From contig CAVTZU010000002.1 of the NCBI GenBank assembly GCA_963739305.1, positions 1 to 19,091 on the forward strand: a stretch of 19,091 nt of DNA. The letters are read 5' to 3'. This stretch comes from Candidatus Bathyarchaeota archaeon (GTDB lineage Archaea > Thermoproteota > Bathyarchaeia > Bathyarchaeales > Bathycorpusculaceae). Below are positions 4,054 through 18,280 of the stretch, in pieces. The position numbers and the translations under genes were made by a program. The notes beneath the pieces are model-generated. The model did no database searches. It was not told the origin of the DNA and was given only the letters and a program-made list of their open reading frames with translations. How positions within the stretch are numbered: position 1 is the stretch's first letter; every line of letters begins with the position of its first letter.

Positions 4054-5229
4054 TTATTTGTTAGCAACTTCAATGATTGTGTTCACGGCGTTTTCCAGTC
4101 CGTCATGCTTCGAAGCTTCCTGTTGCACCTCTGCGGCTTTCTCAACCATCCTACTGCTCAGGGTCTCTTTGACTTCTGCGAGGAGTTTCTCTCTGCTTAG
4201 GCGGTCTTGAAGAGCGATTCTTGCGACGCCGATGTCCTCTGCCTGTTTTGCGTTGTTGATTTGTTCGGTGTGTCCAGGAGTCGGTATGAGTATCATGGGT
4301 TTGCCGTAGCACATGCACTGAGTTATCGTTCCATGTCCAGCGCGGCCGATCATGAGGTCGCATGCTTTGAGATACTCGAAACGGTTCGGCACCCACTTGT
4401 AGATGGTCACGTTTCCATGGCGTATGGGTTTGTCGTCGGCGCTCGGGTACCCGTAGGACATCACGATTTCGTAATCATCTGGAAATTCAAGCAGGATCCT
4501 TCTCAGGACACCTGTGACGAAGGCTTTTTCAGAGGTTGGTCCGCTCAGGGGCGCAAAGATAACTGGTTTGTCAACTGGCAGACCTAGCTTCTTGACTAGC
4601 TCCTGCTTCGTGGGCAAATCGTCTGGTCTAGTGGGCAGTATGGGGCCGATGAGCCTTACGTTCTTTCGGTAGGACCTTGGGATGGTGAGGTTGCCGATTG
4701 AAATCGTGTAGGGCGGCGGAAAATCCGGGATAAGAACCGCGTTTACGCTCGTCCAGATTTTTCCGATCAATGTGAGCGTGACCACGTCTGCAAACCTTGC
4801 CAACCTTAGGTTGTGTGTTCTCCGAGGTACTAGCGGCTGAAACTGATTCAAAATACAAATCCTAGGAATCCTTAGCAACCTTGCGGCAAGCAGCGATGAA
4901 GCACGAGAATCTGAGACAACAACGTCTGGTCCAGAGCCCTGTATCGCTGACACTTCAGCATCGATCTGTTTTAAGAGCATGAAAGAAGCCAGAAATGGTC
5001 CAGGGTTGATTGCGGTCTGTCGGAAGTCGATGCTTCCGTCAAGCTTGACCTGAAAACCGACCGGGGGGGATTCTATCAACGGAAACCTTTCGCGTCTGAC
5101 GTAGTCTATTCCTTCGCTGTAAGTTGAAAAGACCAATTCAGCTCCCTTTTCGGAGAGTTTTCTTGCAACAGGTACAACTCGCCCGACGTGTCCCAAGCCG
5201 ATTCCGCATGGAGCGAAGTAGATCTTCAT
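4054..5229 (-). CDS. GT-B glycosyltransferase, family 28 / MurG-like
   Basis: N-terminal CGIGLGHVGR; C-terminal IGRAGHGT..GKPMILIP..GHTEQ..NA. Confidence 0.88.
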   Translation of the reverse strand: MKIYFAPCGIGLGHVGRVVPVARKLSEKGAELVFSTYSEGIDYVRRERFPLIESPPVGFQVKLDGSIDFRQTAINPGPFLASFMLLKQIDAEVSAIQGSGPDVVVSDSRASSLLAARLLRIPRICILNQFQPLVPRRTHNLRLARFADVVTLTLIGKIWTSVNAVLIPDFPPPYTISIGNLTIPRSYRKNVRLIGPILPTRPDDLPTKQELVKKLGLPVDKPVIFAPLSGPTSEKAFVTGVLRRILLEFPDDYEIVMSYGYPSADDKPIRHGNVTIYKWVPNRFEYLKACDLMIGRAGHGTITQCMCYGKPMILIPTPGHTEQINNAKQAEDIGVARIALQDRLSREKLLAEVKETLSSRMVEKAAEVQQEASKHDGLENAVNTIIEVANK

Positions 5230-5444
5230 CAGCTGGTTCCCACCGAGAGAGCGAAGCTCTGGCTGATTGGGCGGTTTTTATCCGCGGCTTGCCCTAGAAA
5301 ATCGTTGAAAACGGGAAACTCCAGCTTCTGCATTAGAGGCAAATGAACTCCGAGCGATTCTTAACTTTTTTGGAATGTTAAGGAGAACTTAAGAAAACAA
5401 TTAAGTCGGATAAGCCGAGTATGGATTGAATTGGAGGACGCGGT

Positions 5445-5774
5445 ATGGCAAAGCAAGAGAAAGCAGTCACGAAGGACATGCTGGTTGGACTGCGGGTTGT
5501 TGACTCAGATGGCAAAGCTGTTGGAAAGGTCAGAGACGTTGCTTTCGTCATCGGGAAGATGGGGCTGTCGTTGTATGTTGAGGGAAAGAAGGGCGATAGC
5601 CGTAATGTAAGTTGGGCTGAGGTTCAAGCAATTGGCGACTTCGTAGTCCTGAAGCCACCAGAAGCTCAGCAACCTCAAGCCACTGTGCAGGCGTGCCCTA
5701 CGTGTGGTGGACCATTGAGATACATCGCGCAGTACCAGAGATGGTGGTGTGACAGAGACAAGAAATACGCGTAG
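5445..5774 (+). CDS. PRC-barrel domain protein with C-terminal zinc-ribbon-like motif
   Basis: LVGLRVVDSDGKAVGKVRDV...VSWAEVQAIGDFVVL is a PRC-barrel pattern, followed by CPTCG...WWCDRD. GGAGG RBS upstream. Confidence 0.85.
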   Translation: MAKQEKAVTKDMLVGLRVVDSDGKAVGKVRDVAFVIGKMGLSLYVEGKKGDSRNVSWAEVQAIGDFVVLKPPEAQQPQATVQACPTCGGPLRYIAQYQRWWCDRDKKYA

Positions 5775-5866
5775 CGCGCGCGGAAAACGCTGCACGCCGG
5801 AACCCGGCACGACCGCCCATTATTGCGAGCCCGGAGGTGCCTGAGGCAAAAGCTAAGCGCGTACTA
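5772..5866. other. GC-rich intergenic multi-hairpin element
   Basis: The ends TAGCGCGCGC and GCGCGTACTA are imperfect inverted repeats. Internal stems are GCCGG-aac-CCGGC and GCC-tga-GGC. Confidence 0.5.
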
Positions 5867-5879
5867 AAACAATTAATAG

Positions 5880-5903
5880 CTGGATACACTTAAGGTTATC
5901 CAG
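5880..5903. promoter_or_regulatory. Inverted repeat CTGGATA-N10-TATCCAG upstream of the cohesin-dockerin gene
   Basis: Perfect 7-bp arms ending 15 bp before ATG 5919. Function inferred. Confidence 0.4.
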
Positions 5904-5918
5904 TCGCGTGGGGTTTGC

Positions 5919-7142
5919 ATGAATGGTAAGATTTTATCGTTGATCCTGTTCTTTGTTTTGGTTTCGTCTTCGTTCATGATGCTGCTTCCAGCGTCCAAGG
6001 CTGTTGAGCCTGTCCGTGTTTACGTTGATCCGCCCAGCGTTGTGGATCCTCCAGTGTTCTTTAATGTGTCCGTGAAACTGGAGAACGTTGCGGACCTGGC
6101 AGGTGCTGAGTGGCAGCTTAAGTGGAATCCGACTGTCCTGAGGGCAGTGAACATCACCGAGGTAATGTTTCATGAGGTAACTCCGCAGAGTGATTGGGAC
6201 AATATTCAGAGACTCTGGCTGGAGACTGACAACGTTCTCGGCGTGGCCAAGTACGCTTACGACTACACTAACGGTGTCAAAGCCAAAGAGAGGGGTTATC
6301 TGCCGATCTCGGGCAACCACACGATGGCAATCATCGAGTTCCAAGTCACAGGCGTTGGCAATTGCAGCTTGGATCTCATCGGATCGAAGCTGGGTGACAT
6401 GAATGCCGAGCCCATTAATCATGAAAATGGCAACGGATTCTTCAGCAACAGCGTTGCGCCTCCACCGCTGCCTCCGTCGCCGATAGAATCCGCAGACGTA
6501 CTGGTGTATCTTGATCCGCATCGAGTGAGAAACGAAAGTCTAGGACCCCAAACGACCTTCTCCATAGCGGTGAAGGTGGACAGTATCGCGAATCATTCAG
6601 GAATGATCTACGTTGAATTTAGCTTGTCGTGGAACTCAACTCTACTGGACTGTCTCAGCGTGACAGATGTGATCATGCATGAAGTCACTCCTCAGAATGA
6701 GTCGGACAACATAGAACTGACCGTGGGTTGGGACAACACGCAAGGCGTTCTTTACTATCTCGGCGATTTCTCCAATTACCTGCGCGCTCAGTCAGGAGGA
6801 TACGGACCTATCTTTGGAAATCACACTATCGCAGTCATCACGTTCCAAGTGAAGGACTATGGCAAATGCTTGCTCCATCTGTTCAATTTTAGGGCGGCCA
6901 GTCCCCCGAGCCTCAGCGTACTGCTTTATGCAACGATGGACGGATACTTCGCCAACACGTTGAACGGTGACGTGAACTGCGACAATGCTGTCAACTTGTT
7001 CGACGCCATATTGCTGGCAAAATCCTTTGGAACTCGGCCTTTAGACATGAATTGGAGTGAAGATGCTGATATCAACGGTGATGGTAGCGTTGATGTTTAT
7101 GATGCGATAGCGTTATGCCGCTGCTTTGGACATACAAGATGA
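5919..7142 (+). CDS. Secreted protein: signal peptide, two cohesin-like domains, C-terminal dockerin
   Basis: Hydrophobic N-terminus. Two homologous repeats (VYVDP..F.V.VK..L.WNPTVL..HEVTPQ..GNHT.A.I.FQV..G.C.L.L) joined by a Pro-rich linker. Duplicated Ca-binding loops GDVNCDNAVNLFDA and ADINGDGSVDVYDA. Confidence 0.85.
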   Translation: MNGKILSLILFFVLVSSSFMMLLPASKAVEPVRVYVDPPSVVDPPVFFNVSVKLENVADLAGAEWQLKWNPTVLRAVNITEVMFHEVTPQSDWDNIQRLWLETDNVLGVAKYAYDYTNGVKAKERGYLPISGNHTMAIIEFQVTGVGNCSLDLIGSKLGDMNAEPINHENGNGFFSNSVAPPPLPPSPIESADVLVYLDPHRVRNESLGPQTTFSIAVKVDSIANHSGMIYVEFSLSWNSTLLDCLSVTDVIMHEVTPQNESDNIELTVGWDNTQGVLYYLGDFSNYLRAQSGGYGPIFGNHTIAVITFQVKDYGKCLLHLFNFRAASPPSLSVLLYATMDGYFANTLNGDVNCDNAVNLFDAILLAKSFGTRPLDMNWSEDADINGDGSVDVYDAIALCRCFGHTR

Positions 7143-7173
7143 ACCGTGCTGTTTAGCGCGCGGTTTCAGCGAC

Positions 7174-9888
7174 TCACGGTACGTGAATGTTGAAGTTGTC
7201 TGCCAGTATGATGGCGTCGTAGATGTCCACGTATCCGTCAGCATTTATGTCAGCGTCTGCGTTGAACCTCGCTTGGCCCGTCGATGCTCCGAAGGCGTTT
7301 GCCAGCTGAATGGCGTCGTAGATGTCTATCAAGCCGTTTCCAGTCGTGTCGCCTGGGAGCGTCTTGGCCGTGAGGGTGCCGGCTGCTTGCACGTTGTTTG
7401 CTGTGTTGGTGTCCTGCGCGTTGTTGTTAATGGGTTGCGTTTCGCCTGCCACCGCGTATGGGATGCCTGTGCTGTTGCCAGCCAATACGACGTTTGTGCC
7501 GTCACACCACCAGATCATGCTAGCGCTTGCGCTGCCGCCTGGTGCAAGGGCCACGTAGGTGCCGTTTGCGAACTGCTTGTTGCCGGCAAACGTGTATGTT
7601 AAACCGACTGCCACGTACAGAATCGCGATAGCGTTGTTGTTGTCGTTCCTTGTAACATGCAGGTTGTAGGTCATGTTTGCCGGCGATGTGTCGCCGTTTC
7701 CTTTTCTCATCTGGTTACGGAAGATGTAAACTGGGTTGTACGTCGGCGACGCCGGCGTAACCGTGGCGGTCATGTCCACGTCTACGTTCTCAAGCGGCGT
7801 CGTCGTCTTGTAAAGGTCGTAAGCATACAAGCCCGGGAACAGAGCGTTGAAGTACCAGCCTTGAACCCAATATCTCGCCCATCTCCTGCCTACGGGCTGA
7901 ACCAGCGGAAAGCTTGGAACGTCCAGCCAGTACCTGTACTGCAGGTCTTGGTACATGGCTCCACGCTTTGCAGAGTCTGGCTCAACCAATGCGGCATTGA
8001 TCTCTTGGTCGACGAAGGCTTGATCCCCGGGGAACGGAGGCCCCTGTGCCACCATGAAATTACCCCAAGATGCCTGATAAGGCTCGCAGAAGTTGTCGGG
8101 GTCAGCGAAGTCCGCAAGCCAACCATATGCTGTAAGGGGAAATGCTTCTTCCCAGGCCATCGAAGGAAGGTAGAATTCATAACCTACCACATTGCACTTG
8201 TACTTGGGGTTCAGACTGTGGAAGGCATCTGCGATCAAGTCTGCAGCGATCTTTCTCCGAGGGGGGTCGCTGCCAAGGTAGTACGCGATGGTTGTTTCGA
8301 AGCCTTCTTGGCTGACGTTGAAGCCGTCAACGATTGCTTGGTTCAACTCGTTCTGCATTTCTGTGTAGTTAAGGTCGCGTTGCGGCATGCTTGCGTTCAT
8401 GTTCTTGTATGATGCCGGTGATAACCCTTCGACCCACCATGATCGTTGCGGAATGCCTTCGCCGAAGTACGCTTGTTGTATGTACTGTGTGTAGTTGAGT
8501 GCCCATGCGAACGCTCTCCTTATGTGCTCGTTGGCGAAGAACAAAGGTTCAGCTGGCGTCCGGTGAGTTGGGTACCCTACATAGGATTGGTAGGAGCTTG
8601 CTCCCGAAATGTTCATGCCGAAAATTTCCATGTCGTTGCTTAAAGCAGGAATGTTGTAGACAAGGTTGATTCCAGGAACAGGGGTATAGGCGTCAGTCGT
8701 CAAGAGGTCGTGCATGTTGGCTTGAGGAACCGCAGCAACATCGAATTCACCTTCAAGAAACAACATTTTTCTCGTCGGCCACGTGTTAACGCCTTTTTCG
8801 ATTACGGTTGTCACGTGGTTGACACTCCAGTTCGTCGGAATCCAGTATTGGGATCCATCGAGCGATGTGCTGGTTTGCCACGCGTCGATTCTCCAGATCA
8901 GGCTCGACTGATCCCATGACGTGAACACGTATGGACCCGTGCCCATGATTTCGTTCACGTGCTTGTTGTTGCTCGGAAACTTTGAGCCTGCAACTGAGCC
9001 GTAGACTGCTGGGTCTTTCCATTGGTCAATTTCGCTGCGTGTGACTGTTGGTTTCCAGTGCCACAGGTTAGTCCAGCCAGCTGCAAACTGCCCGTTCCAT
9101 CCACCGCGTTCCATGACCCATTCTGGCTCGACTATGCAGCCCCAGGTTTGTGCGAAAATCTGGTTGAGCACGCCTTGAGCCCATGGGTTCTGGAAGTGGA
9201 AACTCACGTCGTTGGCACCAGGTCCGAGGTAACACCAACTCTGAATCATGTTGGCGGCGGAGGCTTCGTCAGCGGGGTTTTTGAACGTGCCGTTACCGTA
9301 TTGCGGGAACGCATACCATAAGCCTACTGATGCGGCTCCTGTGAAGACCGATTTGAACCACATCCATGTTGGTGCGTAGTATGAGTCGTAGACCATTTGT
9401 CTCTGGAACGAGTAGATAACGTCCGACGCTTTGAGGTTGCGTGACGGAATGATGCTGCCGTTTGCTGCAGTCCACGGTTGGAATGCGGCTGACGTCCTGA
9501 TCGTGAAAGTGTAGTATTCTCCAGAAGCGTTGAGCACTATCGTCGGCAATGCCGTAGCCAAAACCGGCGTGTAGCTGTAAAGGTCAGCGTACTCTGAAAG
9601 GGTAAGGTTGTGTCCAACACCAAGCGTGAAAGTGATTGGGTGCGTGTCGTTCCACCATATCAACGTTTGCGCGACGTTCTGTATCAGCTCGCCGCTTGCT
9701 GTGTCGTAGGCACGAGCCGGATCAAGCCTAGAAGGTTGACCGATTGTGGCAACGTTGTATATGGTTGGGTCGATTGGTGGTTGAGTTGACGATCCTGCAG
9801 AAGCTGCAAATGAACTGATTATGAGACAAGCTATCAATAACGCGGTGAAGAGTCTCTGCTTGTTTTGATCAAACAGACTCCTCGACAA
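7174..9888 (-). CDS. ABC transporter solute-binding protein, family 5 (OppA/DppA-like), with Ig/CARDB-like domain and C-terminal dockerin
   Basis: Signal peptide; LDPARAYDTAS, GTGPY, IRRAFAWALNY and GWLADFADP motifs. C-terminal GDTTGNGLIDIYDA and ADINADGYVDIYDA. GGAGG precedes the TTG start. Confidence 0.9.
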   Translation of the reverse strand: MSRSLFDQNKQRLFTALLIACLIISSFAASAGSSTQPPIDPTIYNVATIGQPSRLDPARAYDTASGELIQNVAQTLIWWNDTHPITFTLGVGHNLTLSEYADLYSYTPVLATALPTIVLNASGEYYTFTIRTSAAFQPWTAANGSIIPSRNLKASDVIYSFQRQMVYDSYYAPTWMWFKSVFTGAASVGLWYAFPQYGNGTFKNPADEASAANMIQSWCYLGPGANDVSFHFQNPWAQGVLNQIFAQTWGCIVEPEWVMERGGWNGQFAAGWTNLWHWKPTVTRSEIDQWKDPAVYGSVAGSKFPSNNKHVNEIMGTGPYVFTSWDQSSLIWRIDAWQTSTSLDGSQYWIPTNWSVNHVTTVIEKGVNTWPTRKMLFLEGEFDVAAVPQANMHDLLTTDAYTPVPGINLVYNIPALSNDMEIFGMNISGASSYQSYVGYPTHRTPAEPLFFANEHIRRAFAWALNYTQYIQQAYFGEGIPQRSWWVEGLSPASYKNMNASMPQRDLNYTEMQNELNQAIVDGFNVSQEGFETTIAYYLGSDPPRRKIAADLIADAFHSLNPKYKCNVVGYEFYLPSMAWEEAFPLTAYGWLADFADPDNFCEPYQASWGNFMVAQGPPFPGDQAFVDQEINAALVEPDSAKRGAMYQDLQYRYWLDVPSFPLVQPVGRRWARYWVQGWYFNALFPGLYAYDLYKTTTPLENVDVDMTATVTPASPTYNPVYIFRNQMRKGNGDTSPANMTYNLHVTRNDNNNAIAILYVAVGLTYTFAGNKQFANGTYVALAPGGSASASMIWWCDGTNVVLAGNSTGIPYAVAGETQPINNNAQDTNTANNVQAAGTLTAKTLPGDTTGNGLIDIYDAIQLANAFGASTGQARFNADADINADGYVDIYDAIILADNFNIHVP

Positions 9889-10012
9889 TTAGCCTCCCCT
9901 TAGATTACTACGTTAAACAGAGAGATAAATTCTGCGGAACACGGCGCAATCACAAGATAAGCACGTTTTCCAAGAACATTAGCGCGCGCTGGGCAGAGCA
10001 TTCTATCACTAT

Positions 10013-10366
10013 CTATTGAGCAATTGTGGATAGGCCGATAGCTACGGATAGGATAATGAGAACGGCTCCAATTATCATCAGGATGACTCCCTCTGACACC
10101 TGCTTCGGCCTTTGGTCTTCCAGGTATTCCCTGTAGAATTCAGGGTCAGCGATTGTATTTTTCATGTCGACAGTCCTAGGGTTTCCCATCCCTGCAGCGA
10201 CGTACGCACCAAAAGCGAAGATCAGTACTCCCTCCACAAACAGTACATCCACGAAAAGCACATGCAAATACAAGGCTAGAAGAAAGTCTAGTATGCAGAG
10301 CGCTAGCAGAGAAACTGAGATTTTCTTCCAAGAACCGAAGGTTAAACTTGTGCTTTTATTTTCCAT
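10013..10366 (-). CDS. Small membrane protein (about 3 TM), unknown function
   Basis: 117-aa ATG ORF with three hydrophobic segments. Confidence 0.75.
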   Translation of the reverse strand: MENKSTSLTFGSWKKISVSLLALCILDFLLALYLHVLFVDVLFVEGVLIFAFGAYVAAGMGNPRTVDMKNTIADPEFYREYLEDQRPKQVSEGVILMIIGAVLIILSVAIGLSTIAQ

Positions 10367-10491
10367 CTTAAGCTAGATGCTCTATCACCGAGATATATCG
10401 CTATCGTTCAGTTGAGCTAGCGATAAGCGCGCTGAGTGAGGATACGTGCGAGAGAGTAAGAGCGCGTTTGAGAGCGTAAACATCTGGTTTC

Positions 10492-10509
10492 AGGATTAGA
10501 CTTTGCCCC
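10492..10509 (-). repeat. Inter-gene palindromic repeat, copy A (degenerate, reverse orientation)
   Basis: Minus strand reads GGGGCAAAGTCTAATCCT followed by gAAACCAgatgTTTAC. Confidence 0.7.
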
Positions 10510-10591
10510 CAAACTTAAACCCGCATGCTTCAGAGTCTCAAACCCTGCCCTCAGCTCCACAATAATCTTCTGGCTTCTTGCGCGCGCATTA

Positions 10592-10840
10592 CTACTCTTC
10601 TGCCATGAGTGCGAGCAGTCCTACTATGACTGCGAGGCAAAGAACCAATGTTGAAATGTACAATGGAGCAGCACTGGCGTAATAGTAGGGATAGGACGGA
10701 GGACCAAACATCTCTGCGACGTTGAACGCAACGCCAATAACGACTAGGAGAAGACATAAGATAAAACCGAATTTCTGGACTCTTCTTCGAGCTGGTGGAC
10801 GAACTTCCTGTTGTTCTGCCACTCCAGACACCGATGACAA
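10592..10840 (-). CDS. Small membrane protein (2 TM), unknown function
   Basis: 82-aa ORF with a basic patch and two hydrophobic helices. Start uncertain. Confidence 0.65.
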   Translation of the reverse strand: MSSVSGVAEQQEVRPPARRRVQKFGFILCLLLVVIGVAFNVAEMFGPPSYPYYYASAAPLYISTLVLCLAVIVGLLALMAEE

Positions 10841-10884
10841 CTATCGTACACTTTTCCTATAGCCTATTTGGTTAGTGCGTGGAG

Positions 10885-10902
10885 GAGGTAAAGTTTTATC
10901 CT
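10885..10902 (+). repeat. Inter-gene palindromic repeat, copy B
   Basis: GAGGTAAAGTTTTATCCT, containing the exact core GTAAAGTTTTATCC. Confidence 0.85.
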
Positions 10903-10972
10903 ACAGGCCTAGTAGGCTGAATTCACAAATCACATAGTATGACAAGAAGCTGGACAATAGAGGACAAGAAAC

Positions 10973-11167
10973 ATGAGTATGGCTACTGTTCTCAAACTCG
11001 CTGTTTGGGGCATTTGCGTAGCAATTGCATTGCAGGTCATTTTCTATTTCGTTTTTCAAGTGATAGGCTACAATTCTTATTTGCTGAGCATAACCCTGTT
11101 GGTGTCGCTGACGGTCGCTGTTCTGTTTCTGGTTGGATGGAGAATTCTGAAAAGAGCAATAAGATAG
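10973..11167 (+). CDS. Small membrane protein (2 TM), unknown function
   Basis: 64-aa ATG ORF, two hydrophobic helices, basic C-terminus; GAGG upstream. Confidence 0.7.
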   Translation: MSMATVLKLAVWGICVAIALQVIFYFVFQVIGYNSYLLSITLLVSLTVAVLFLVGWRILKRAIR

Positions 11168-11200
11168 CGGCCCGAGTTTGGTAGTCAGTCAAGGTTGGTC

Positions 11201-11218
11201 GGCGTAAAGTTTTATCCC
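11201..11218 (+). repeat. Inter-gene palindromic repeat, copy C
   Basis: GGCGTAAAGTTTTATCCC followed by AAACC. Confidence 0.85.
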
Positions 11219-11250
11219 AAACCGTTTAAGGGTGTAACGGGTAGTGTAAA

Positions 11251-11673
11251 TTGAGTGAGGGTATGGGTCGTCAAGTCACTCTTTACGTGAAAAGCACGAA
11301 AACGAAAGTTGAAGATGGACAAGTAGGTCGTGAAAAAACTGTTGTATCATGGAGGGTGCCCTTATGGGGGGCTGGCAATCCTCGCGCATATCAGTATTAT
11401 GATGTGGAGAACATTTCTCATTATGATTACGTGCTTCCAGAAGATCAGCAAAGAATGCTGGAAGATGTCAAGGAGTTGGGCCTAAAATACGGTTTTAACG
11501 TGGAAGTCGTTGACTTGGAGAAGATGAATGTTTTTTCAAGGTTTGAGCTTGAGCGTTCTAAGAAGATGAAGACGTTTCCAAGTATGGTTACTGATTCTGG
11601 GGAGACATTTGAGGGTATAATGACGAAAGAGCAAATAGAAGCTTGCTTCTCCAAAACAGCCAAAAAAGAGTAA
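11251..11673 (+). CDS. Hypothetical protein, possible thioredoxin/glutaredoxin-like fold without CxxC
   Basis: 140 aa. The pattern VTLY...VEVVDL...TFP...GETFEGIMTKEQI suggests a Trx fold. Start may be ATG 11263. Confidence 0.6.
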   Translation: MSEGMGRQVTLYVKSTKTKVEDGQVGREKTVVSWRVPLWGAGNPRAYQYYDVENISHYDYVLPEDQQRMLEDVKELGLKYGFNVEVVDLEKMNVFSRFELERSKKMKTFPSMVTDSGETFEGIMTKEQIEACFSKTAKKE

Positions 11674-11682
11674 TTTTGGTTC

Positions 11683-11700
11683 GGGATAAGGCTTTAGCCC
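11683..11700 (-). repeat. Inter-gene palindromic repeat, copy D (reverse orientation)
   Basis: Plus strand TCGGGATAA-GGCT-TTAGCCCGA (9-4-9, one mismatch). Minus strand reads GGGCTAAAGCCTTATCCCGAACCAAAATTAC. Confidence 0.8.
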
Positions 11701-11784
11701 GACACACACTTTCAGCGTGCTTGATGCTTGGTTCAATCGATATGTTCATCAAGTCTAGGAGACAGTTTTTAGGGAACTTTGGAA

Positions 11785-12025
11785 ATGCCATCTAGTGATC
11801 TTATGAACGCAATGCAAGCTTTCGTCGCACTTTCCACGTTGTTCATCCTAGTTTTGTACGAGTTTGTTGTCGTATATTTATTGGCCGCCAATTTCCCAAC
11901 TACTGGAATTCATAAACGAGACTTCGGCGCCTCTGATAATAATCGGCTTTGTGCTTTTGGGTTTGTTTGGTATGGTGGCAATACTGATAGCAGCGCGGAT
12001 AGTATACAAAAGATTGGATGAATAG
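11785..12025 (+). pseudogene. Small 2-TM membrane protein split by an apparent +1 frameshift near 11883
   Basis: Frame 1 encodes TM1 (AFVALSTLFILVLYEFVVVYLL). Frame 2 encodes PPISQLLEFINETSAPLIIIGFVLLGLFGMVAILIAARIVYKRLDE*, ending at 12025. Confidence 0.55.
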
Positions 12026-12033
12026 AATAGTAT

Positions 12034-12178
12034 TGAAGCGCGCGCGATATAGGTGTCTTTGAGTTCGCGGTTGGGAGAGTTGGGTTTAGCTGTGCGTCTA
12101 TAGTTGTTTCTTGTTGTGTGTTTTGGGGGTAAAGTTTTATCCAACCAACCAAAAACTTACCTGCTAGCGTGCGCTTCA
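12034..12178. repeat. 145-bp element with terminal inverted repeats, containing repeat copy E (MITE-like or hairpin site)
   Basis: TGAAGCGCGCGC (12034-12045) and GCGTGCGCTTCA (12167-12178) match 11/12 as inverted repeats. TAT flanks both ends. Confidence 0.6.
12126..12143 (+). repeat. Inter-gene palindromic repeat, copy E
   Basis: GGGGTAAAGTTTTATCCA followed by accAACCAAAAACTTAC. Confidence 0.85.
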
Positions 12179-12258
12179 TATTTCTGCTTCATAAAAGACT
12201 TATGCCGCCTATAGTGAAAATTAAAGATTGCCCAGCTGAGAAAGCGGAGATGCAGTGA

Positions 12259-12732
12259 TTGAATGAAAACATCCTAGTTGTTGACGACGACGCAGAAGTG
12301 AGAAAGACCCTTTCTTCAATCCTATCCGAGGAGGGATACTCAGTTGTAACTGCGGAGAATGGCAAACAGGCGACTAAGATCTCCGAAAAATCGCGTTTTG
12401 ACATGGCCCTGATTGACATTAAGCTGCCTGACATGGAGGGAACTGAGCTTCTCCAAAGGCTGAAGCAAAACCAGCCCCACATGGTCAAGATAATCATCAC
12501 GGGTTTTCCGACATTAGAGAATGCTATGGAGACAGTTAACGAGGGTGCCGATGGATACATTTTGAAACCTTTCGACGTGCAGAAATTGCTGGAGATGATC
12601 AGAAAGCATCTGAAAAGGGAGACTGCTGAACATGTCAGCAATTGGATGGAATTTGACCAAGATCGAGCACGGAAATCTGGGTCTGATCAAAACAATGATG
12701 CTAAGCGTAAATCTTTTTTTGAATCACAATAG
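12259..12732 (+). CDS. Response regulator receiver-domain protein with short C-terminal extension
   Basis: ILVVDDD, phospho-acceptor LIDIKLPDMEG, IITG, GADGYILKPF. Confidence 0.93.
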   Translation: MNENILVVDDDAEVRKTLSSILSEEGYSVVTAENGKQATKISEKSRFDMALIDIKLPDMEGTELLQRLKQNQPHMVKIIITGFPTLENAMETVNEGADGYILKPFDVQKLLEMIRKHLKRETAEHVSNWMEFDQDRARKSGSDQNNDAKRKSFFESQ

Positions 12733-12756
12733 ACCGAAAAAGCCATTGGTTGGTTG

Positions 12757-12774
12757 GGGGTAAAGTTTTATCCC
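12757..12774 (+). repeat. Inter-gene palindromic repeat, copy F
   Basis: GGGGTAAAGTTTTATCCC followed by AAACCCAAAAATTATTAC. Confidence 0.85.
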
Positions 12775-12822
12775 AAACCCAAAAATTATTACCTCTGTAG
12801 TAGAAGAGTCATAGGGGTTAAC

Positions 12823-13461
12823 ATGTCAAATCACGTTGTTAGCGTGATTGAAGACAAGACACGGGATAAGCCGTCACGATTGAATAGAGTCTTTCGAATA
12901 AGCCTCAAACAGCTTCTCGTTTTGATTCTGGTTGTCGCAGTAGTTTTTGCGTCATTTGCGTGGGCATCTGACAGAATTGAAATTCATAAGCGTTGGGCTT
13001 CGATGATAGAGATGTCGCAGCGTTTCCGAGTTCACTTCACTGAGGTTTACCTGCGTCTGTATAGCCTGACGGAAAACGAGACCATGGATCCCCTTTCACA
13101 TGAGATTTTCTCGAATGAGATAAGTTATGCGTCGTGGACGATGAACCAATTGGTCAGTTTGGATAGTGCACATGCAAGTGAACTCTTCAGAATTGAAGAT
13201 TTAATCATGACTTTACAGGAGTCGGGGACAAGTGGGTTACAATTACAGCTGAGGGACTCTCAGTTTCAGAACTTGAGCGACACTCTTCACGCTATTGCAG
13301 AGAACCTTCCTCTAGCATATTGGAACCCTCTCAACACCACAAGTATAAACAGCGAGACTGGACCTCCGTTCTGGTATTTCGGGCCCTCACCACCCGACGA
13401 AGCTTTGTTGCAGCAAATAGCCACCCTCGCCATCCAAGCAAAAGCAATAATCGGTCCATAG
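12823..13461 (+). CDS. Hypothetical membrane-anchored or secreted helical protein
   Basis: ATG 12823 preferred because the track's TTG 12754 start runs through repeat F. One TM segment (LLVLILVVAVVFASFAWA). Confidence 0.7.
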   Translation: MSNHVVSVIEDKTRDKPSRLNRVFRISLKQLLVLILVVAVVFASFAWASDRIEIHKRWASMIEMSQRFRVHFTEVYLRLYSLTENETMDPLSHEIFSNEISYASWTMNQLVSLDSAHASELFRIEDLIMTLQESGTSGLQLQLRDSQFQNLSDTLHAIAENLPLAYWNPLNTTSINSETGPPFWYFGPSPPDEALLQQIATLAIQAKAIIGP

Positions 13462-13627
13462 CTTGAGACAAAACATTGCCCAACCAACTTCGAAAGACGG
13501 GCGCACACGCTATGCACGCTTTGGAAGCGTTCGGCAATCTCGAACAGTCTGCTTCAGAGAATAACATTAAATCGTCTCGCAACAACTACAACTGTTGGGG
13601 CACGGGTCTAGGCGACCTCATTTGTCC

Positions 13628-14077
13628 ATGACCAATGAAGACAAAGAAGAGATTTCAGGAAACACCCTGCGGGTCTACTGGTACATCCTGAAGAAAAGAG
13701 AGAACTGCGGTGTTAGGGAAGTTCAAAGAGCACTTGGCTTTTCTAGCTCAAGCAGTGCGCACTACCATCTTGAGAAACTCGCTGACAAAGGTTTTCTAAT
13801 CAAGGACAAGTATGGAAGCTATCAAGTGAACACCAAAGTGAAAACAGGAAGCATCAGCCCCTTCATCCTCGTTCATGGCTTCATATTTCCAAGACAGCTG
13901 TTTTATGCCCTTGCGACGACTGTCATGAACGTTTTCTTCCTATCGTTTTTCTGGGGGTTTGTGACCTTGATAGTCGTTCTCGCCTTGACTCCTGGAATCT
14001 TGGCTTGCATAATCTTTTGGTATGAAACAGTGAAGTTGTGGCTGAGTCTCCCGTCTTTCGAGGAGGGTGTTCGATAA
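13628..14077 (+). CDS. Winged-helix DNA-binding protein with two C-terminal TM helices
   Basis: TLRVYWYIL..GVREVQRALGFSSSSSAHYHLEKL..KGFL..YGSY wHTH, followed by two hydrophobic segments. Confidence 0.82.
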   Translation: MTNEDKEEISGNTLRVYWYILKKRENCGVREVQRALGFSSSSSAHYHLEKLADKGFLIKDKYGSYQVNTKVKTGSISPFILVHGFIFPRQLFYALATTVMNVFFLSFFWGFVTLIVVLALTPGILACIIFWYETVKLWLSLPSFEEGVR

Positions 14078-14132
14078 GTTTTGATGGCTGTTCGAATCTA
14101 TAGATTGAAAGGCATCAATTAGAATTTGATTC

Positions 14133-15437
14133 ATGGTTATCAGAATGAAGAAAAAAATCTTGACTGTGATCACGCTCGGACTGTTGCTCACTAGCTTGGC
14201 AAGCGCCGGCTTTGTTTGGCGCACACCTCCCGCAATGGGGGCTAGTTCTTCAGATGATGAGACAGTGAACACGGGCGCTGAGTATTCCAATGCAACCATA
14301 GGATCGCCCATAGAAGGGTTGGCGATATGGTACGTTTGGATAAACACTAACTCCACTCAAGTGATCTATCTGGCCTACGTCTCTTCGACGGTTCCGCCCC
14401 CGGTTCTCACGTTCTTCGGTCAGCATTACGTGACTGGAAACGGCACAGAAGTGTTCGTGGGCAACACGTTGACTGCGATGGAAGTTTACAACGACACTAA
14501 TCGAAACGGAATACCAGATGTAGATCTGAGCAATGGGACAAGTGAATTGTTGTATAATTTCGCTGTCAACAGTTCACAAAGCTTCGTGATAACACCTGTT
14601 CAGAAAACTCTGATAGACGGAGATATTCATTACACTTGGGGCTTGCGATACAATACTATAGATGGTTTCCTGCTCACTGAGAACCAGGCTACAGGCGCGA
14701 ATGTCCTTCTTGACTATCTAGCTTCGTCATATGATTTTTACGTCAAAAACAATGCTTCCTATTTGAAGACAAGCTTCGAAATCGGCAAGATATTGAACGT
14801 CACATCCTCCTCAGACCTCAACTTTACGCTGGAAGGGTTGAGTCTCTCTTTGCTGTACGGAACAAGCGTCATTGCTTCAAACACTTACACGACGGTTGTC
14901 AACGGGGAACCCTACAACTCCACGACAACGCAAAGCTCGGCGATACCTACGCAATCAGGTGAAATCAGGATTGAAGACGCCAAGGCTTACGAGTGTGTGT
15001 TTGGGCAAAACTACACGCTCTCGAGAGATTCAGAGAACGCGACTTATCCGTCCAAGTCTGCCGCTGTTTCTGACCATAGCGTGCCTGGAGGCGTGTACAG
15101 ATCCGTTGAAAGTGCACTCTCATTCTTTGAGAATGTGCTGTCGGGTGTGTTTCCGAAAATAAGCAGTGTACTGACAACCATCAACCTTGACTACGGTTTT
15201 TCATCTTTTCTTTACAGAGTGTGCTATCCACGATGGGACGGCTACGCACTTGAACACGATCCAACCTACATAGCCTATGTGACTCTGGTAGCTATACCTG
15301 AAATAGGCCCGCCTGTGATGCTGGTCATCGGAGCATCTATTGTGGGCTCAGCCGTTTTGATAGTGGCGCTGCTTGACACGAGGAAAAATCGAAGAATGCT
15401 GCCTAACAAATCGGGCGTACAAGTACCCTCATCTTGA
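14133..15437 (+). CDS. Secreted cell-surface protein with C-terminal membrane anchor
   Basis: MKKKIL signal peptide, S/T/N-rich with many N-x-S/T sequons, a YNDTNRNGIPD Ca-loop-like motif, C-terminal TM followed by RKNRR. Confidence 0.8.
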   Translation: MVIRMKKKILTVITLGLLLTSLASAGFVWRTPPAMGASSSDDETVNTGAEYSNATIGSPIEGLAIWYVWINTNSTQVIYLAYVSSTVPPPVLTFFGQHYVTGNGTEVFVGNTLTAMEVYNDTNRNGIPDVDLSNGTSELLYNFAVNSSQSFVITPVQKTLIDGDIHYTWGLRYNTIDGFLLTENQATGANVLLDYLASSYDFYVKNNASYLKTSFEIGKILNVTSSSDLNFTLEGLSLSLLYGTSVIASNTYTTVVNGEPYNSTTTQSSAIPTQSGEIRIEDAKAYECVFGQNYTLSRDSENATYPSKSAAVSDHSVPGGVYRSVESALSFFENVLSGVFPKISSVLTTINLDYGFSSFLYRVCYPRWDGYALEHDPTYIAYVTLVAIPEIGPPVMLVIGASIVGSAVLIVALLDTRKNRRMLPNKSGVQVPSS

Positions 15438-15444
15438 GCTTCCA

Positions 15445-15459
15445 TCTTTTTCTATTTTT
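15445..15459 (+). terminator. Putative archaeal oligo-T terminator
   Basis: TCTTTTTCTATTTTT just after the stop at 15437. Confidence 0.45.
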
Positions 15460-15552
15460 CAGCCACACACTCGACGTTTGAGAACGCATTAATATGATAG
15501 TGAGTGCGCGCGCTGAGAAGGTTCTTGTTTTCTTGCAGGTGGACTGTTCATC

Positions 15553-15564
15553 AAGTTTTTATAT
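15553..15564 (+). promoter_or_regulatory. Putative BRE/TATA box for the MFS gene
   Basis: AAGTTTTTATAT about 36 bp upstream of GTG 15600. Confidence 0.45.
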
Positions 15565-15599
15565 GCTTTCTTGTACCGTAGGCTAAGAGGTCTATTTCA

Positions 15600-16866
15600 G
15601 TGGCTGGTTCCAGTGGGTCAAATAAGATTCTGAAGAATTGGCGAGGAAGATTCTATCTTCCAGGCAACACGTGGGTGCTTGCTCTGAGCGCCACTGTCTG
15701 GAATATCGGAGGCGCGATGATCAACCCGTACCAGTCTGTTTATTTTACGGGCTTAGGAGCAGATTCGGTGTTCATCGGCTTTCTCTTAGGCGTCAACTCG
15801 GCTGTCACAGCCTTGATGCAGTTGGTAGGCGGATATGTTGCGGATGCTTGGGGTAGAAGAAAAGTCATCGTTATCTTCAGTTTTTTGAGCGCTGGAACAG
15901 CGTTTATATTCATTTTTGTTTCGGGGCCGGCTCTTTTGATGATTCCTATAGTGATTGGGGCGATTTCAGGCATTTATGGTCCTGCGTTCAATGCGACTTT
16001 GACTGATTCGATGGAGCCGGAGCTGAGGGCGCGAGGGGTGGTTTCCTTCACACTTGTTTCTTCACTGCCCTCGATTTTCTTTCCGTACGTTGGAGGAACG
16101 CTGATGCAGACGCTTGGAACGCTCGAAGGGCTTGCGCGTAGCCTTTTTCTTCAGTGGACTCTTGGGCGTCATCGGAGTATCGTATAGGGCTCTGAGGCTC
16201 AAAGAGACCTACGTGGGGGTTATGGTGAAGGAGAAAAAGCGAGTTCGACGTCTTGTTTCAGACTTTTTCGCGGACAATTTGTTTGTTCTGCGGAACGCCA
16301 CGGACGGGGCGAAGAAGCTTCTAATCTACGCCGTTTTGGCAAGTGCTGGAACGGCCATGACCGTGCCTTACACGTCGATCTATTTGGTTAACATCGTAAA
16401 TCTGCCCCCGGAATTCTATGGTCTTCTGACGAATGTTGCTGGATTGATCAGCGTCTTGCTCTTGCTGCCTGCTGCGAGAATAATTGAAAGAGTGGGGTTG
16501 AGGAAGAGTGCGGTTTACGCTTCAGTTTCAGTTCCTGTGAATCAGCTTATATTCGTGAGGGCTAGAGGAACGGACGACTTTGTAACGTGGACTGCGATAG
16601 GCGGCGCGAGCGGTGCTTTGTTAGGTCCATCGTTGACGGCGCTTCAGGCGAATCTTTCGCCGCAGGAGATGCGTGGGAGAATAATGGCTATGTTCAGTGT
16701 GTTCTCGCTGATCACGGCTGTTCCGGCGCAGATAGTGGGAGGTTACTTGTTTCAGACTCTGGGTCCGCTGTCTCCGTTCATCGCCTCGACACCGATCTTT
16801 GTGTTGGCGACGTTGATACTCATTCGAATAAAGGAGCCAGGTCCGCGGTCAATCGAAAAATCATGA
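15600..16866 (+). pseudogene. MFS transporter with a single +1 frameshift at about 16128-16130 (pseudogene or sequencing error)
   Basis: Motif A GGYVADAWGRRK in the first half; ARIIERVGLRK and RGRIMA in the second. Deleting one G from GAAGGGC joins LGTLE to GLRVAFFFSG, giving a 421-aa protein. Confidence 0.85.
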
Positions 16867-17020
16867 AAACTCATTATGCGCGCAATAGGAGGAACAGCGT
16901 GAAATCCCCATGCTTTTGTAACAATTTTGCTGCAGCAATGAGTAACAACTTCAGTTTTTCTGAAGTTCTCAAAAAGAAAATTAACGCGAAGGCTTTTTTT
17001 GGGGGTGTTGTGACACTCGG

Positions 17021-17302
17021 TTAATCTCTGTGTTCGTGGGATTCCTCTTCAGATTTTTCTTCGGTCTCTTCTTCGTCCTCAGTAGCTTCTTCTCCTACGG
17101 CTCTTGCTTCTTCTTCAGCGTCTCCTTCTGCAGGATAAGTGTCATCTAACCAAATCCTGAACTGTTCTTTGCTCTCAGGATCGGAAAAGGCCCACTCACA
17201 CAGTTGACTGACGACGGCGTTGAGATCGATCTCATGATCTTTGGCCAAATTCTTCAGAAACTGTTCCCACTTTGCAGGTAAAGATACCGGAGGCCCAACC
17301 AT
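17021..17302 (-). CDS. Hypothetical protein, RHH-like N-terminus with very acidic tail
   Basis: 93-aa ATG ORF with GGTGA RBS. PVSLPAKWEQFLKNLA...LNAVVSQLC fits a strand-helix-helix pattern (inference). Confidence 0.65.
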   Translation of the reverse strand: MVGPPVSLPAKWEQFLKNLAKDHEIDLNAVVSQLCEWAFSDPESKEQFRIWLDDTYPAEGDAEEEARAVGEEATEDEEETEEKSEEESHEHRD

Positions 17303-17401
17303 CTTACTTTTTCACCGTCATCCTTTATCATTCAAGCCATATTTAAGCTTCAGGCATACTTTTCGCCCGAAACGGGCCTGCAATTAAGCATGCGATTCAA
17401 G

Positions 17402-18034
17402 CTAGCGAGCGTTTTCGCAGATTGAACCAGGCATTGACCTTGACCATGCGTTCGGATTTTTGTACTTGACTGCTGGCGCTATATCTTCTGTCTGTTTTTC
17501 TTCTCCGACAAGGATTTTTTTCATTTTTGACAAGAGTTCTCTGTGAGTCTCCTCATCTCTGATGATGGTTTCGAGAATGTCCTTTAGGTCTTGTAAGTCC
17601 ACATTGTAGATCTCGCGGATTTCTCTTGTCATGTATTCAAGGGTCTTCAGCTGAGTCAGAATATAGTACTCTTCGGCAACAGTGCTCTCTAGGAGCATCA
17701 GCTTTTCAATCAACGATGACATGTGCTCTTTGGGTATTCTCTCTTTTGTGGCGATCTCTCCTGCAAGACGCTCAATTGTCGTCCAGGTTGCGCCGAAAAA
17801 GAGTTTCTTTTCGCGGCCTCTGGGTTGCTTTTTTTGCTTAACTATGCTTTCGCTTATTCCTTTGAGGAGTATGGAATGTTTGCGACTGTCGAATGCGATG
17901 TGAAGCAGGAGAGAATTGATTAGCGGGAGATTCACTTTGTCGGCTAGACTCTTGTAGAGTAGATATGCCCTTTCTTCCAGAATGCTAGCGCAGCGCAGAA
18001 AGTCTACAACGCTTTCCTGCTTGAGCTTTGTCAT
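17402..18034 (-). CDS. Ferritin-like / rubrerythrin-family protein
   Basis: Duplicated E...(D/E)xxH helical pattern: LEERAYLLY..DSRKH and LESTVAEEY..DEETH. GGAG upstream. Confidence 0.78.
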   Translation of the reverse strand: MTKLKQESVVDFLRCASILEERAYLLYKSLADKVNLPLINSLLLHIAFDSRKHSILLKGISESIVKQKKQPRGREKKLFFGATWTTIERLAGEIATKERIPKEHMSSLIEKLMLLESTVAEEYYILTQLKTLEYMTREIREIYNVDLQDLKDILETIIRDEETHRELLSKMKKILVGEEKQTEDIAPAVKYKNPNAWSRSMPGSICENAR

Positions 18035-18127
18035 CCATAGGCTCCCTTCTGACTAAGATGATAGTAAGATGATAAACAATTTATGAATCCGAAATATAGA
18101 CGCAGACTGAAGAAAAGAGACTGGATT

Positions 18128-18280
18128 TTATCTTTGTTCTTTTAACAACAACAGTCTCTTCGCGGTCTCTTTGGAGATTTTTTCAAGACCCTCGGCTAAT
18201 TCTGCACGGGTAACTTCGTCTATTGGATACACTTTCCCATTCTTATCGATAAATGCGAGTTCCAACTTCCTTTTTTCCAC
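18128..18280 (-). CDS. Small 50-aa protein (absent from the ORF track)
   Basis: GTG start with GGAGGTGA Shine-Dalgarno at 18285-18292. Translation MEKRKLELAFIDKNGKVYPIDEVTRAELAEGLEKISKETAKRLLLLKEQR*. Confidence 0.7.
   Translation of the reverse strand: MEKRKLELAFIDKNGKVYPIDEVTRAELAEGLEKISKETAKRLLLLKEQR

Follow-up and report, generated by a model that had tools for sequence, protein, structure and literature searches.

A genus-restricted intergenic repeat marks the joints between variable gene modules in Bathyarchaeia chromosomes and their tailed proviruses

The stretch of DNA under study, referred to here as the window, is the 19,091-nucleotide (nt) contig CAVTZU010000002.1 of Candidatus Bathyarchaeota archaeon (GenBank assembly GCA_963739305.1, family Bathycorpusculaceae); it is the whole of contig C2 of G000, a 2.32-Mb metagenome-assembled genome (MAG) that is 97.1% complete and 7.8% contaminated. 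The window carries six copies of a short intergenic repeat that alternate with small genes, and this repeat is the subject of the present analysis. All six sites are recovered at the positions given in a preliminary description, made from the sequence alone, which depicted them as a cassette-like array. Four of the sites, all on the plus strand, contain the identical 14-mer GTAAAGTTTTATCC (starts at 10888, 11204, 12129 and 12760), and the remaining two are 3-mismatch copies on the minus strand (10493–10506 and 11684–11697). At up to 3 mismatches, the window holds 8 matches, compared with 1.64 expected (standard deviation (sd) 1.32), a number reached in 0 of 200 shuffles; the remaining two, in the housekeeping part (5926 and 9602), are bare occurrences with 3 mismatches and do not exceed the chance level.

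From left to right, the array starts with a degenerate copy of the repeat (10485..10519, minus strand, core GCAAAGTCTAATCC; 12.3 bits and E 0.25 with nhmmer), which is followed by the gene for an 82-amino acid (aa) protein without a Pfam family (10592..10840, minus strand). The next copy has the exact 14-mer core (10875..10909, plus strand, 22.3 bits) and lies between divergent small genes, the second of which encodes a 64-aa protein (10973..11167, plus strand). Then come another exact copy (11193..11223, plus strand, 28.6 bits), the gene for a 136-aa soluble protein (11263..11673, plus strand), a second degenerate copy (11674..11708, minus strand, core CTAAAGCCTTATCC, 11.2 bits), a small membrane-protein gene split over two frames (11779..12025, plus strand), an exact copy (12114..12153, plus strand, 33.5 bits), a gene for a stand-alone response-regulator receiver domain (12259..12732, plus strand; Response_reg, PF00072, E 3.9e-31) and the last exact copy (12746..12783, plus strand, 37.9 bits). 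By open reading frame (ORF) coordinates, there is one gene in each of the five intervals, with the spacing ranging, as first noted, from 316 nt (10888 to 11204) to 631 nt (12129 to 12760). The initial reading of these genes holds for the receiver and for the 82-aa and 64-aa proteins, each of which has two hydrophobic segments; in the split gene, the frameshift is there, with a single hydrophobic segment in each frame, and the thioredoxin-like fold of the 136-aa protein is possible but a weak lead only, given that this protein has no Pfam match and that the nearest Atlas cluster (0.90) contains Thioredoxin_3 in 13% of its members. Homologues of the split gene (81% DNA identity) are located directly beside tyrosine-integrase genes on two other contigs of G000, C8 (584–871) and C31 (4574–4862), and these also shift frame when read against the window protein.

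When the 41 genomic copies with no more than 1 mismatch are aligned, the unit proves to be mirror-symmetric and, at ~40 bp, to exceed the motif noted first. It consists of a ~12-nt low-complexity arm rich in G and T, the core GGGGTAAAGTTTTATCCC, which reads GGGG-TAAAG-TTTTAT-CCC along the alignment, and a ~12-nt arm rich in A and C, the two sides mirroring each other in composition over ~19 nt from the centre. The arms come in several flavours, namely (GGTT)n, (GGGTTT)n and (GT)n, and same-flavour arms are depleted, with GGGTTT on the left and AAACCC on the right in 1 of 128 elements (elements below 24 bits were excluded here as well as from the tests of arm complementarity, TTAC occurrence and cargo clustering). 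The complementarity between the two arms of an element is not above chance (5.34 of 15, compared with 5.54, sd 0.15, for shuffled partners; 128 elements), and the single-strand DNA folds of the six window copies are weak (−1 to −5.8 kcal/mol, z from −2.3 to +1.1 against shuffles); therefore, the repeat is a double-stranded quasi-palindromic site rather than a hairpin. The core is strictly conserved across species, whereas the arms and flanks vary, the arms being kept in composition only. The AACC-A-rich-TTAC tail described initially is present in the window copies but is not general (TTAC occurs 20–24 nt downstream in 8 of 126 elements and on the mirror side in 4 of 126), and for this reason, the notion of TTAC as an initiator was dropped.

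The genomic distribution of the repeat was assessed in 11 genomes of the same genus (G000 and 10 others, including G001, which is complete, G002, G003, G005, G008 and G009) and in 30 genomes of other genera. In G000, the 14-mer occurs exactly 27 times in 2.32 Mb and 41 times with at most 1 mismatch, compared with 0 for a reversed-pattern control, and the profile scan that defines the G000 element set (nhmmer, E<0.05) yields 48 distinct elements. These are clustered, for example, 9 in C8 at 6–15 kb and 5 in C23 at 11–17.5 kb in addition to the 6 in the window (C3, C8, C10, C18, C20, C23, C30 and C31 denote other G000 contigs unless another genome is named). After the two degenerate window copies were added by hand, 48 of the 50 classified elements lie outside called ORFs; the gene calls for this and all other counts of orientation and context come from a crude in-house dicodon caller with a true positive rate of 0.87 and a false positive rate of 0.05 for 50-codon pieces at a score above 4. 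The motif is found in 10 of the 10 other genomes of this peat-dwelling genus, with 22–40 copies in the near-complete ones (reversed-pattern control, 0–2), compared with 0–7 copies in each of the 30 genomes of other genera, and all multi-copy matches in the genome-collection scan belong to Candidatus Bathyarchaeia or Bathyarchaeota records. A search with the arm edges only (TTGGGG-N9-15-CCCAAAC) returns almost exclusively this core within the genus and nothing comparable outside it, so that the conservation of the core is no artefact of the way in which copies were selected.

The genes next to the elements are mostly orphans: around 132 elements, the 506 ORFs located no further than 2.5 kb away form 407 clusters, of which 352 are singletons. 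The recurrent cargo includes GNAT acetyltransferases, glyoxalase/bleomycin-resistance-type proteins, methyltransferases, integrases and Cas1 fragments, and also cohesin, dockerin and beta-helix surface proteins.

The repeat is common to the variable islands of the host and to tailed proviruses, as follows from the presence of full elements beside tailed-virus genes and from integrated terminases. Full elements with arms, together with nearby runs of GCGCGCGC, are present in two contigs of the IMG/VR virus collection, L246 and L248 (L-numbered loci are fetched sequences, among them metagenome contigs, loci of genus genomes and contigs of this collection). In L246, three plus-strand copies follow the genes for a tape-measure protein and a neck protein; in L248, copies flank both sides of a 402-aa gene that sits between the large terminase and a type I restriction-modification system, with a full element 830 nt from the large-terminase gene. 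Relatives of the L248 terminase (66–75% identical) are integrated in G000, G001, G003 and G008, and the one in G001 (71% identical) is 1.4 kb from an element. The terminase gene of G001 is located at 2.05 Mb and that of G000 at 105 kb on C20. The two contigs are a first hint of a virus family that shares the repeat.

In G001, the core is on the plus strand in 8 of 9 elements over the arc from 2.29 Mb through 0 to 0.69 Mb and on the minus strand in 18 of 21 over 0.79–2.285 Mb, and one of the switches is near an Orc1/Cdc6 gene at 692 kb. The best two-breakpoint fit to a replichore polarity accounts for 26 of the 30 elements, a value reached by 52 of 5000 free and 307 of 5000 cluster-preserving permutations; in G000, the correlation of core orientation with GC skew is r = 0.33. 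The replichore polarity is suggestive only, its significance being modest.

The role of the repeat becomes apparent when closely related sequences are compared. Contig C3 is a diverged copy of the window island (91–98% identical), in which 4709–5211 corresponds to window positions 9980–10483, 5221–5701 to 11678–12159 and 5664–11032 to 12751–18132. Missing from C3 are the three-gene stretch 10484..11677, which is bounded by the two minus-strand copies at 10485..10519 and 11674..11708, and the receiver module 12160..12750, bounded by the two plus-strand copies at 12114..12153 and 12746..12783; C3 homology resumes at 11678 and at 12751, within the right-hand copy in each case, and one hybrid element is left at each of the two junctions. 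Contig C30, in turn, equals C8 minus 6377–9041, a segment located between two plus-strand copies, with flanks that are 99.3% identical. In the parts of the window that they cover, contigs from four peat-metagenome runs of one study (X1–X4) display the same joints, 10483 to 11678 in X2 and 12118 to 12754 in X3 and X4. The second of these joints is spanned, among others, by a 1468-nt record that extends 440 nt to one side and 1000 nt to the other. A third joint, 10879 to 12125, again between two plus-strand copies (depth 24 in X1 and 18 in X2), skips 10880–12124, with its left edge in the copy at 10875..10909. One more joint goes back by 2243 nt, from 12759 to 10517 (X3, depth 4.7, shorter side 58 nt), and this could equally reflect a different order of the array.

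The same pattern is seen in bulk. Among 600-nt windows centred on 192 elements (43 from G000 and 149 from fetched loci), there are 2 high-scoring segment pairs (HSPs) that span the element and 68–82 that are one-sided, compared with 4–11 spanning and 8–17 one-sided when the windows are shifted by 400–1500 nt. For the G000 elements, the counts are 2 spanning and 51 one-sided, and for intergenic midpoints within 10 kb, the fairer control, 55 and 190. Pairs of elements that share exactly one proximal flank number 18, and 1 pair shares both. Synteny breakpoints between close relatives thus fall at the motif, a positive outcome of the check proposed in the preliminary description, and the role of the repeat copies as joints for the loss, gain and re-partnering of gene modules is firmly supported.

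A second sequence feature recurs at these boundaries. The run GCGCGCGC occurs 359 times in G000, compared with 23 expected, and runs of this kind are at window positions 9982–9989, 10427–10432, 10580–10587, 12038–12046 and 12167–12174; of 742 GCGCGC runs, 521 are outside ORFs of 100 aa or more, which nevertheless account for 75% of G000. Several homology breakpoints coincide exactly with GCGC runs, among them the left edge of the island shared by C2 and C3, where homology starts at the run 9982..9989, and in locus L148, the receiver module has ATAGCGCGCGC on both sides, with breakpoints there; in L147, a GCGC run stands in place of the core. The GCGC run may be a second junction or boundary motif.

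The receiver module allows one and the same gene to be followed through different surroundings. The same receiver is encoded in 32 metagenome loci at 75–97% amino acid identity, and seven sequences (the window, L145, L146, L147, L166, L157 and G005) share the succession of A/C arm, leader, gene and G/T arm at 89–99% DNA identity. In the 8-row alignment of receiver loci, the sequences outside the cores are mutually unrelated, and the arms travel with the neighbouring gene module rather than with the core. Clustering of the 900-nt flanks assigns six of the seven sequences to 5 distinct neighbour groups on the left and 6 on the right (G005 was left out, and L157 contributes a right flank only). 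Homology to the window never extends past 12116 or 12783 in 35 sequences, and that of seven class A loci begins inside the copy at 12114..12153 and ends inside the copy at 12746..12783, the left and right joints of the module. Of the 7 sequences, 4 have the right-hand core on the plus strand and 2 (L146 and G005) have it inverted; in L147, a GCGCGCGCGC run takes its place. In L145, L147 and L148, the module and its elements reside on contigs of 75–397 kb from three separate metagenome assemblies.

In ~20 other loci, as well as in G001 and G008, the receiver gene has no elements and carries a conserved 3' extension of its own. Many independent captures of this gene were considered and rejected: the identical limits 12175/12745 in the ~20 loci amount to one difference, that between an element-bearing and an element-free lineage, so that the element-bounded form goes back to a single capture, followed by re-partnering. 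The region upstream of the receiver gene, 12175–12258 (~85–110 nt; TTCATATTTCTGCTTCATAAAAGAC...), is conserved in all 8 aligned loci; it also contains a TATA-like box and what may be an upstream ORF of 18 codons. Since this region is conserved whether or not the element is present, the repeat is not needed as the promoter of the receiver gene.

Promoter-like features are nevertheless apparent in the core. Upstream of the tRNA genes of G000 (37 by ARAGORN), AAAG, AACG or AACC followed by CTTAAA, TTTTAA or TTTAT is found ~35–45 nt before the mature 5' end, and the AAAG-TTTTAT of the core fits this pattern of a transcription factor B recognition element (BRE) and TATA box, with the reverse complement AAAAC-TTTAC as a weaker version. 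Start codons cluster 49–87 nt from the core on either side. The orientation of the core, however, is unrelated to the direction of the neighbouring genes: among the 50 classified G000 elements, a gene lies downstream in the forward direction only in 12 cases, in the reverse direction only in 14 and divergently on both sides in 9, with none within 300 nt in 13 and the element inside an ORF in 2. Given this, and the conserved upstream region of the receiver gene itself, a simple directional promoter is not supported; a symmetric two-way promoter or operator is possible. The shared operator or promoter that the preliminary description named as an alternative thus keeps its BRE/TATA resemblance and loses the expected relation to gene direction.

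The explanation that we favour, with a probability somewhat below one half (about 45%), is that the repeat is a homology-assisted regulatory junction, an archaeal counterpart of the promoter-early stem-loops (PeSLs), the ‘mobile regulatory cassettes’ of T4-type phages, as presented in the relevant sections of Arbiol et al. 2010 (PMC2839356). Under this explanation, the genus-specific ~40-bp intergenic repeat, which is the joint between independently assorting modules of chromosomal islands and tailed proviruses, has a core that would serve as a BRE/TATA-like site, probably bound by a protein and probably firing both ways. The presence of a conserved regulatory repeat at every joint would channel recombination to harmless intergenic points, and since each joint offers the same 17–18 bp, an exchange involving two copies, which we infer to proceed without a dedicated enzyme, would remove, insert or re-partner the module lying between them. 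The anatomy of the repeat, its distribution, the position of the breakpoints, the presence/absence variants bounded by two copies and the occurrence of one module with different neighbours are the observations on which this scenario builds; the promoter or operator activity and the exchange without a dedicated enzyme are the parts that it would add.

In the sections of Arbiol et al. 2010 (PMC2839356) that deal with PeSLs, there are several parallels: in both cases, conserved intergenic repeats that look like consensus promoters occur in ~50 copies, are concentrated in hyperplastic regions, flank small orphan genes and are found in tailed-virus genomes, and where close relatives differ by an indel or replacement, two copies delimit it and one chimeric copy is left behind. 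PeSLs carry a stem-loop terminator, according to the same sections, whereas the present repeats have none; further differences are that the repeats described here are mirror-symmetric, have low-complexity G/T and A/C arms, show no tie between orientation and the downstream gene and are located mainly in a cellular archaeal chromosome. For the mini-circles known from PeSLs, the one contig joint that goes back is a possible counterpart here, and the promoter activity of the present repeats is putative. Among archaeal viruses, the intergenic repeats of halovirus HF2 (Russ, Pfeiffer and Dyall-Smith 2021, PMC8707807) are similar, in the part of that study devoted to them, in being short, BRE/TATA-containing repeats of a tailed virus, and its 29-bp class II repeats, with AT motifs separated by C runs, promote transcription in both orientations; the repeats described here differ in that they mark variable joints, number 25–50 per genome and are mostly located in the host chromosome.

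Several observations weigh against homology-assisted exchange at a regulatory repeat. The identity between recombining copies is only 17–18 bp, which is thin for homologous recombination, and the minus-strand copies that bound 10484–11677 share runs of at most ~5 nt; the C3 crossover sits at the edge between arm and core. The inverted right-hand core in 2 of the 7 receiver loci is not produced by simple exchange between direct repeats. The stem-loop terminator of PeSLs has no counterpart, as the arm pairing (5.34, compared with 5.54, of 15) and the fold z-scores attest. On the regulatory side, the indifference of core orientation to the neighbouring genes, the receiver gene's own conserved upstream region and its ~20 relatives without the element all speak against the repeat being the driver of the adjacent gene.

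Some of these points are better accommodated by a dedicated double-strand system for site-specific or target-specific capture and exchange of modules, which we regard as the first rival, possible but less probable. The 18-bp quasi-palindromic core would then be the crossover site, read either as GGGGTA-AAGTTT-TATCCC, with inverted halves of 6 bp that enclose a spacer of 6 bp, or as two 8-bp halves with GT at the centre; modules with their own arms would be inserted, excised and flipped at the core by an enzyme, for example, a tyrosine recombinase or a Cas1-solo, whose gene lies elsewhere. Such a system would be common to one Bathyarchaeia genus and its tailed viruses and undescribed before. 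All the breakpoint and indel evidence applies to such a system equally. The strict conservation of the core across species against variable arms and flanks, the exchange at the arm/core edge between copies of almost no identity, the flipping of cores relative to the same module and the restriction to one genus, as expected of a site that co-evolves with its enzyme, all favour it over exchange by homology. The cargo is compatible as well, considering that the cassettes of chromosomal integrons carry similar genes (acetyltransferases, glyoxalase).

The search for the enzyme did not lead to a single protein. Tyrosine recombinases are plentiful: PF00589 has 15 hits in G000, and for 5 of these an element is no more than 5 kb away. 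The family is, however, equally abundant in other genera, where the element is missing. Conservation next to the arrays is not seen for any recombinase: the neighbouring integrases in G001, G002 and C30 of G000 are at most 21% identical or lack a mutual match and, accordingly, are not orthologous, which eliminates a conserved neighbouring integrase as the partner. Serine recombinases (PF00239) were detected in 0 of the 11 genomes of the genus and in 1 of 41 relatives, and Y1 transposases (PF01797) gave 0 hits in G000. Three window proteins (235 aa, a 160-aa helix-turn-helix protein and 434 aa) were also rejected as array-linked partners, their paralogues not being near other arrays.

Cas1 is the other candidate. 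Matches within 5 kb of an element make up at least 8 of the 15 examined, from six genomes of the genus (the match in G009 was left out, and the element counts of some genomes are lower bounds), and this proximity remains a lead. As the current enzyme in G000, G001, G005 and G008, however, Cas1 was rejected: these genomes contain only fragments or pseudogenes, yet 22–40 elements each. Cas1 in the genus is mostly fragments or pseudogenes, and the loci include C18 9381–9596 and 15069–15263 in G000, 2258379–2259146 in G001 and 9903–10946 in L142; one G001 remnant is 89 nt from an element. An intact Cas1 occurs on contig C28 of G002, where two inverted elements enclose 9 kb; ThiF/E2-like and proteasome-like proteins are encoded in the same 9 kb, and no cas2 could be recognised there. 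A different arrangement consists of paired paralogous tyrosine-recombinase genes of 421–492 aa (L140 13293–15979 of G002 and L141 7643–11883 of G008), which are 43–47% identical to each other and 67–73% identical between the two genomes; in G008, the pair adjoins a third large gene (487 aa) that is not recombinase-like by BLAST. We take this layout to be reminiscent of recombinase-in-trio elements.

The geometry of the sites also speaks against a dedicated system. As described initially, they occur in both orientations, and they are not consistently co-oriented, with 39 same and 23 opposite among adjacent pairs within 3 kb (elements below 15 bits were excluded from this test and the next one). 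Inverted-repeat module ends with the core as a target duplication are not significant, the longest common substring averaging 6.33, compared with 5.99, a value that 110 of 1000 shuffles attain. In contrast to the binding arms of known recombinase sites, what is conserved in the present arms is their composition alone. The pdif/Xer modules of Acinetobacter plasmids have a similar layout, namely, short quasi-palindromic double-stranded sites in both orientations that bound gene modules, with the enzyme encoded elsewhere; pdif sites, however, alternate in orientation around each module and have conserved 11-bp arms and a 6-bp spacer, whereas here the orientations are mixed without alternation and only the composition of the arms is kept. 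The proposal of the preliminary description, an undescribed archaeal site-specific capture system with the recombinase acting in trans, accordingly stands insofar as the sites behave as cassette boundaries in an archaeal host; no conserved partner recombinase was found, and the exchange may or may not be site-specific.

Integrons, casposons and CRISPR arrays were compared as well. In a casposon, an intact Cas1 and a family-B polymerase lie between inverted terminal repeats, with a 14–15-bp target duplication; this possibility was rejected, given that Cas1 near the elements is mostly fragmentary and the inverted module ends are not significant, and no casposon polymerase is present among 10 proteins scanned around the intact Cas1 of G002 C28. 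A CRISPR array is excluded by the element spacing of 300–3000 nt, compared with the ~30-nt repeats and 25–50-nt spacers of such an array, and a crude repeat scan of G000 found no array; no Rfam family matches at or near the threshold, so that no known RNA family was recognised. The archaeal integrons with attC arrays, as characterized in the pertinent parts of Ghaly et al. 2022 (PMC9668308), share with the present arrays the presence of one gene per site, the accessory or orphan cargo and the presence/absence of cassettes between relatives. Here, by contrast, complementarity between the arms is lacking, shuffled sequences fold just as well, the sites are not co-oriented and no IntI was identified in a search by the general PF00589 profile; together with the lack of RYYYAAC/GTTRRRY ends in the six copies and in the 41-copy position table, this bears out the early view that the sites are not attC-like. 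In the way it works, the repeat resembles PeSLs and, more loosely, integron or pdif modules. It fails the defining structural tests of attC, repetitive extragenic palindromic (REP) sequences and CRISPR, and it is without the stem-loop of PeSLs.

Less probable still is that the repeat is solely the promoter or operator of a regulon of accessory genes, for example, the site of a genus-specific repressor that overlaps a BRE/TATA element, with the breakpoints being incidental because homology between paralogues ends in intergenic DNA anyway. The resemblance of the core to the BRE/TATA of G000 tRNA genes, the quasi-palindrome, which would suit a dimeric factor, and the clustering of start codons 49–87 nt from the core on either side are all in line with this, and generic intergenic midpoints are also mostly one-sided (165 spanning compared with 771 one-sided). 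The fraction of spanning matches at the elements, however, is 2 of 53, below the 55 of 245 in neighbouring spacers; exact presence/absence between two copies that leaves one hybrid is seen 3 times in G000 and again in independent contigs; and a regulatory site pure and simple is hard to reconcile with the 13 of 50 copies without a gene start within 300 nt, with the irrelevance of orientation to gene direction and with the dispensability of the element for the receiver gene.

That the repeat is a selfish short element, transposing by itself into intergenic DNA, appears quite improbable. REP sequences and REPINs, which go with RAYT transposases, are short, extragenic, palindrome-like, lineage-specific repeats with tens of copies, and in these respects, like miniature inverted-repeat transposable elements, they would resemble the present repeat; here, however, there is no hairpin potential, no RAYT/Y1 transposase in G000 and a location at module joints. 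Moreover, the arms move with the neighbouring module, not with the core, and differ from copy to copy, so that the copies are not replicas of one master. Assembly artefacts, with contigs misjoined across a short repeat, are very improbable as the source of the junctions despite the 7.8% contamination of the G000 MAG, a shared core plus G-run of 17–18 bp and Logan contigs that presumably were built from 31-letter words, because the junctions recur in C3 as well as in contigs from 3 separate runs, including the 1468-nt record, because their flanks differ by 2–9% from C2 and so belong to another lineage rather than to misjoined reads of one, and because the receiver module sits with its elements on the 75–397-kb contigs of three assemblies.

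A few other features deserve mention. On C10, positions 112185–115095 are an inverted duplication of a 314-aa gene, with an element inside each inner end (113058, plus strand, and 114222, minus strand) and both copies identical for at least 40 nt past the element; this could be an invertible segment or a feature of the assembly. The first gene past the last copy in the window (12823..13461, plus strand) encodes a 212-aa protein of no known family with one N-terminal hydrophobic segment. Further downstream, the overlapping ORFs 15600–16187 and 16114–16866 each match MFS_1 and are probably a single transporter gene (15600–16866) split by a frameshift or a sequencing error. To the left of the array, the surface-protein genes at 5919–9888 comprise a cohesin/dockerin gene (5919–7142) and the gene for a 904-aa family-5 solute-binding protein that ends in a dockerin (7174–9888), with at least 5 paralogues elsewhere in G000 at 69–75% DNA identity; these genes suggest that this archaeon has a cellulosome-like surface display.

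Modular shuffling at conserved intergenic repeats is a phenomenon of a known kind; what is new here is its occurrence in an archaeal chromosome, with the repeat shared with the viruses of that archaeon, and no description of such an element in Bathyarchaeia was found in the open-access literature searched. Bathyarchaeia are abundant uncultured archaea of sediment and peat, the gene gain and loss of which are largely uncharted. The repeat is a simple sequence tag that predicts where these genomes are plastic and that bounds the modules by which co-occurring strains differ, and the 40-mer offers a handle for mining the accessory genes of the genus from metagenomes, pulling down the repeat-binding protein and testing gene exchange between viruses and hosts. 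If the exchange is homology-assisted, PeSL-style shuffling would not be confined to T4-type phages but would extend to a cellular archaeal chromosome; if it is driven by an enzyme, the repeat would represent a second, independent gene-cassette platform, integron-like but evolved apart from attC/IntI, that links the viral and host gene pools.

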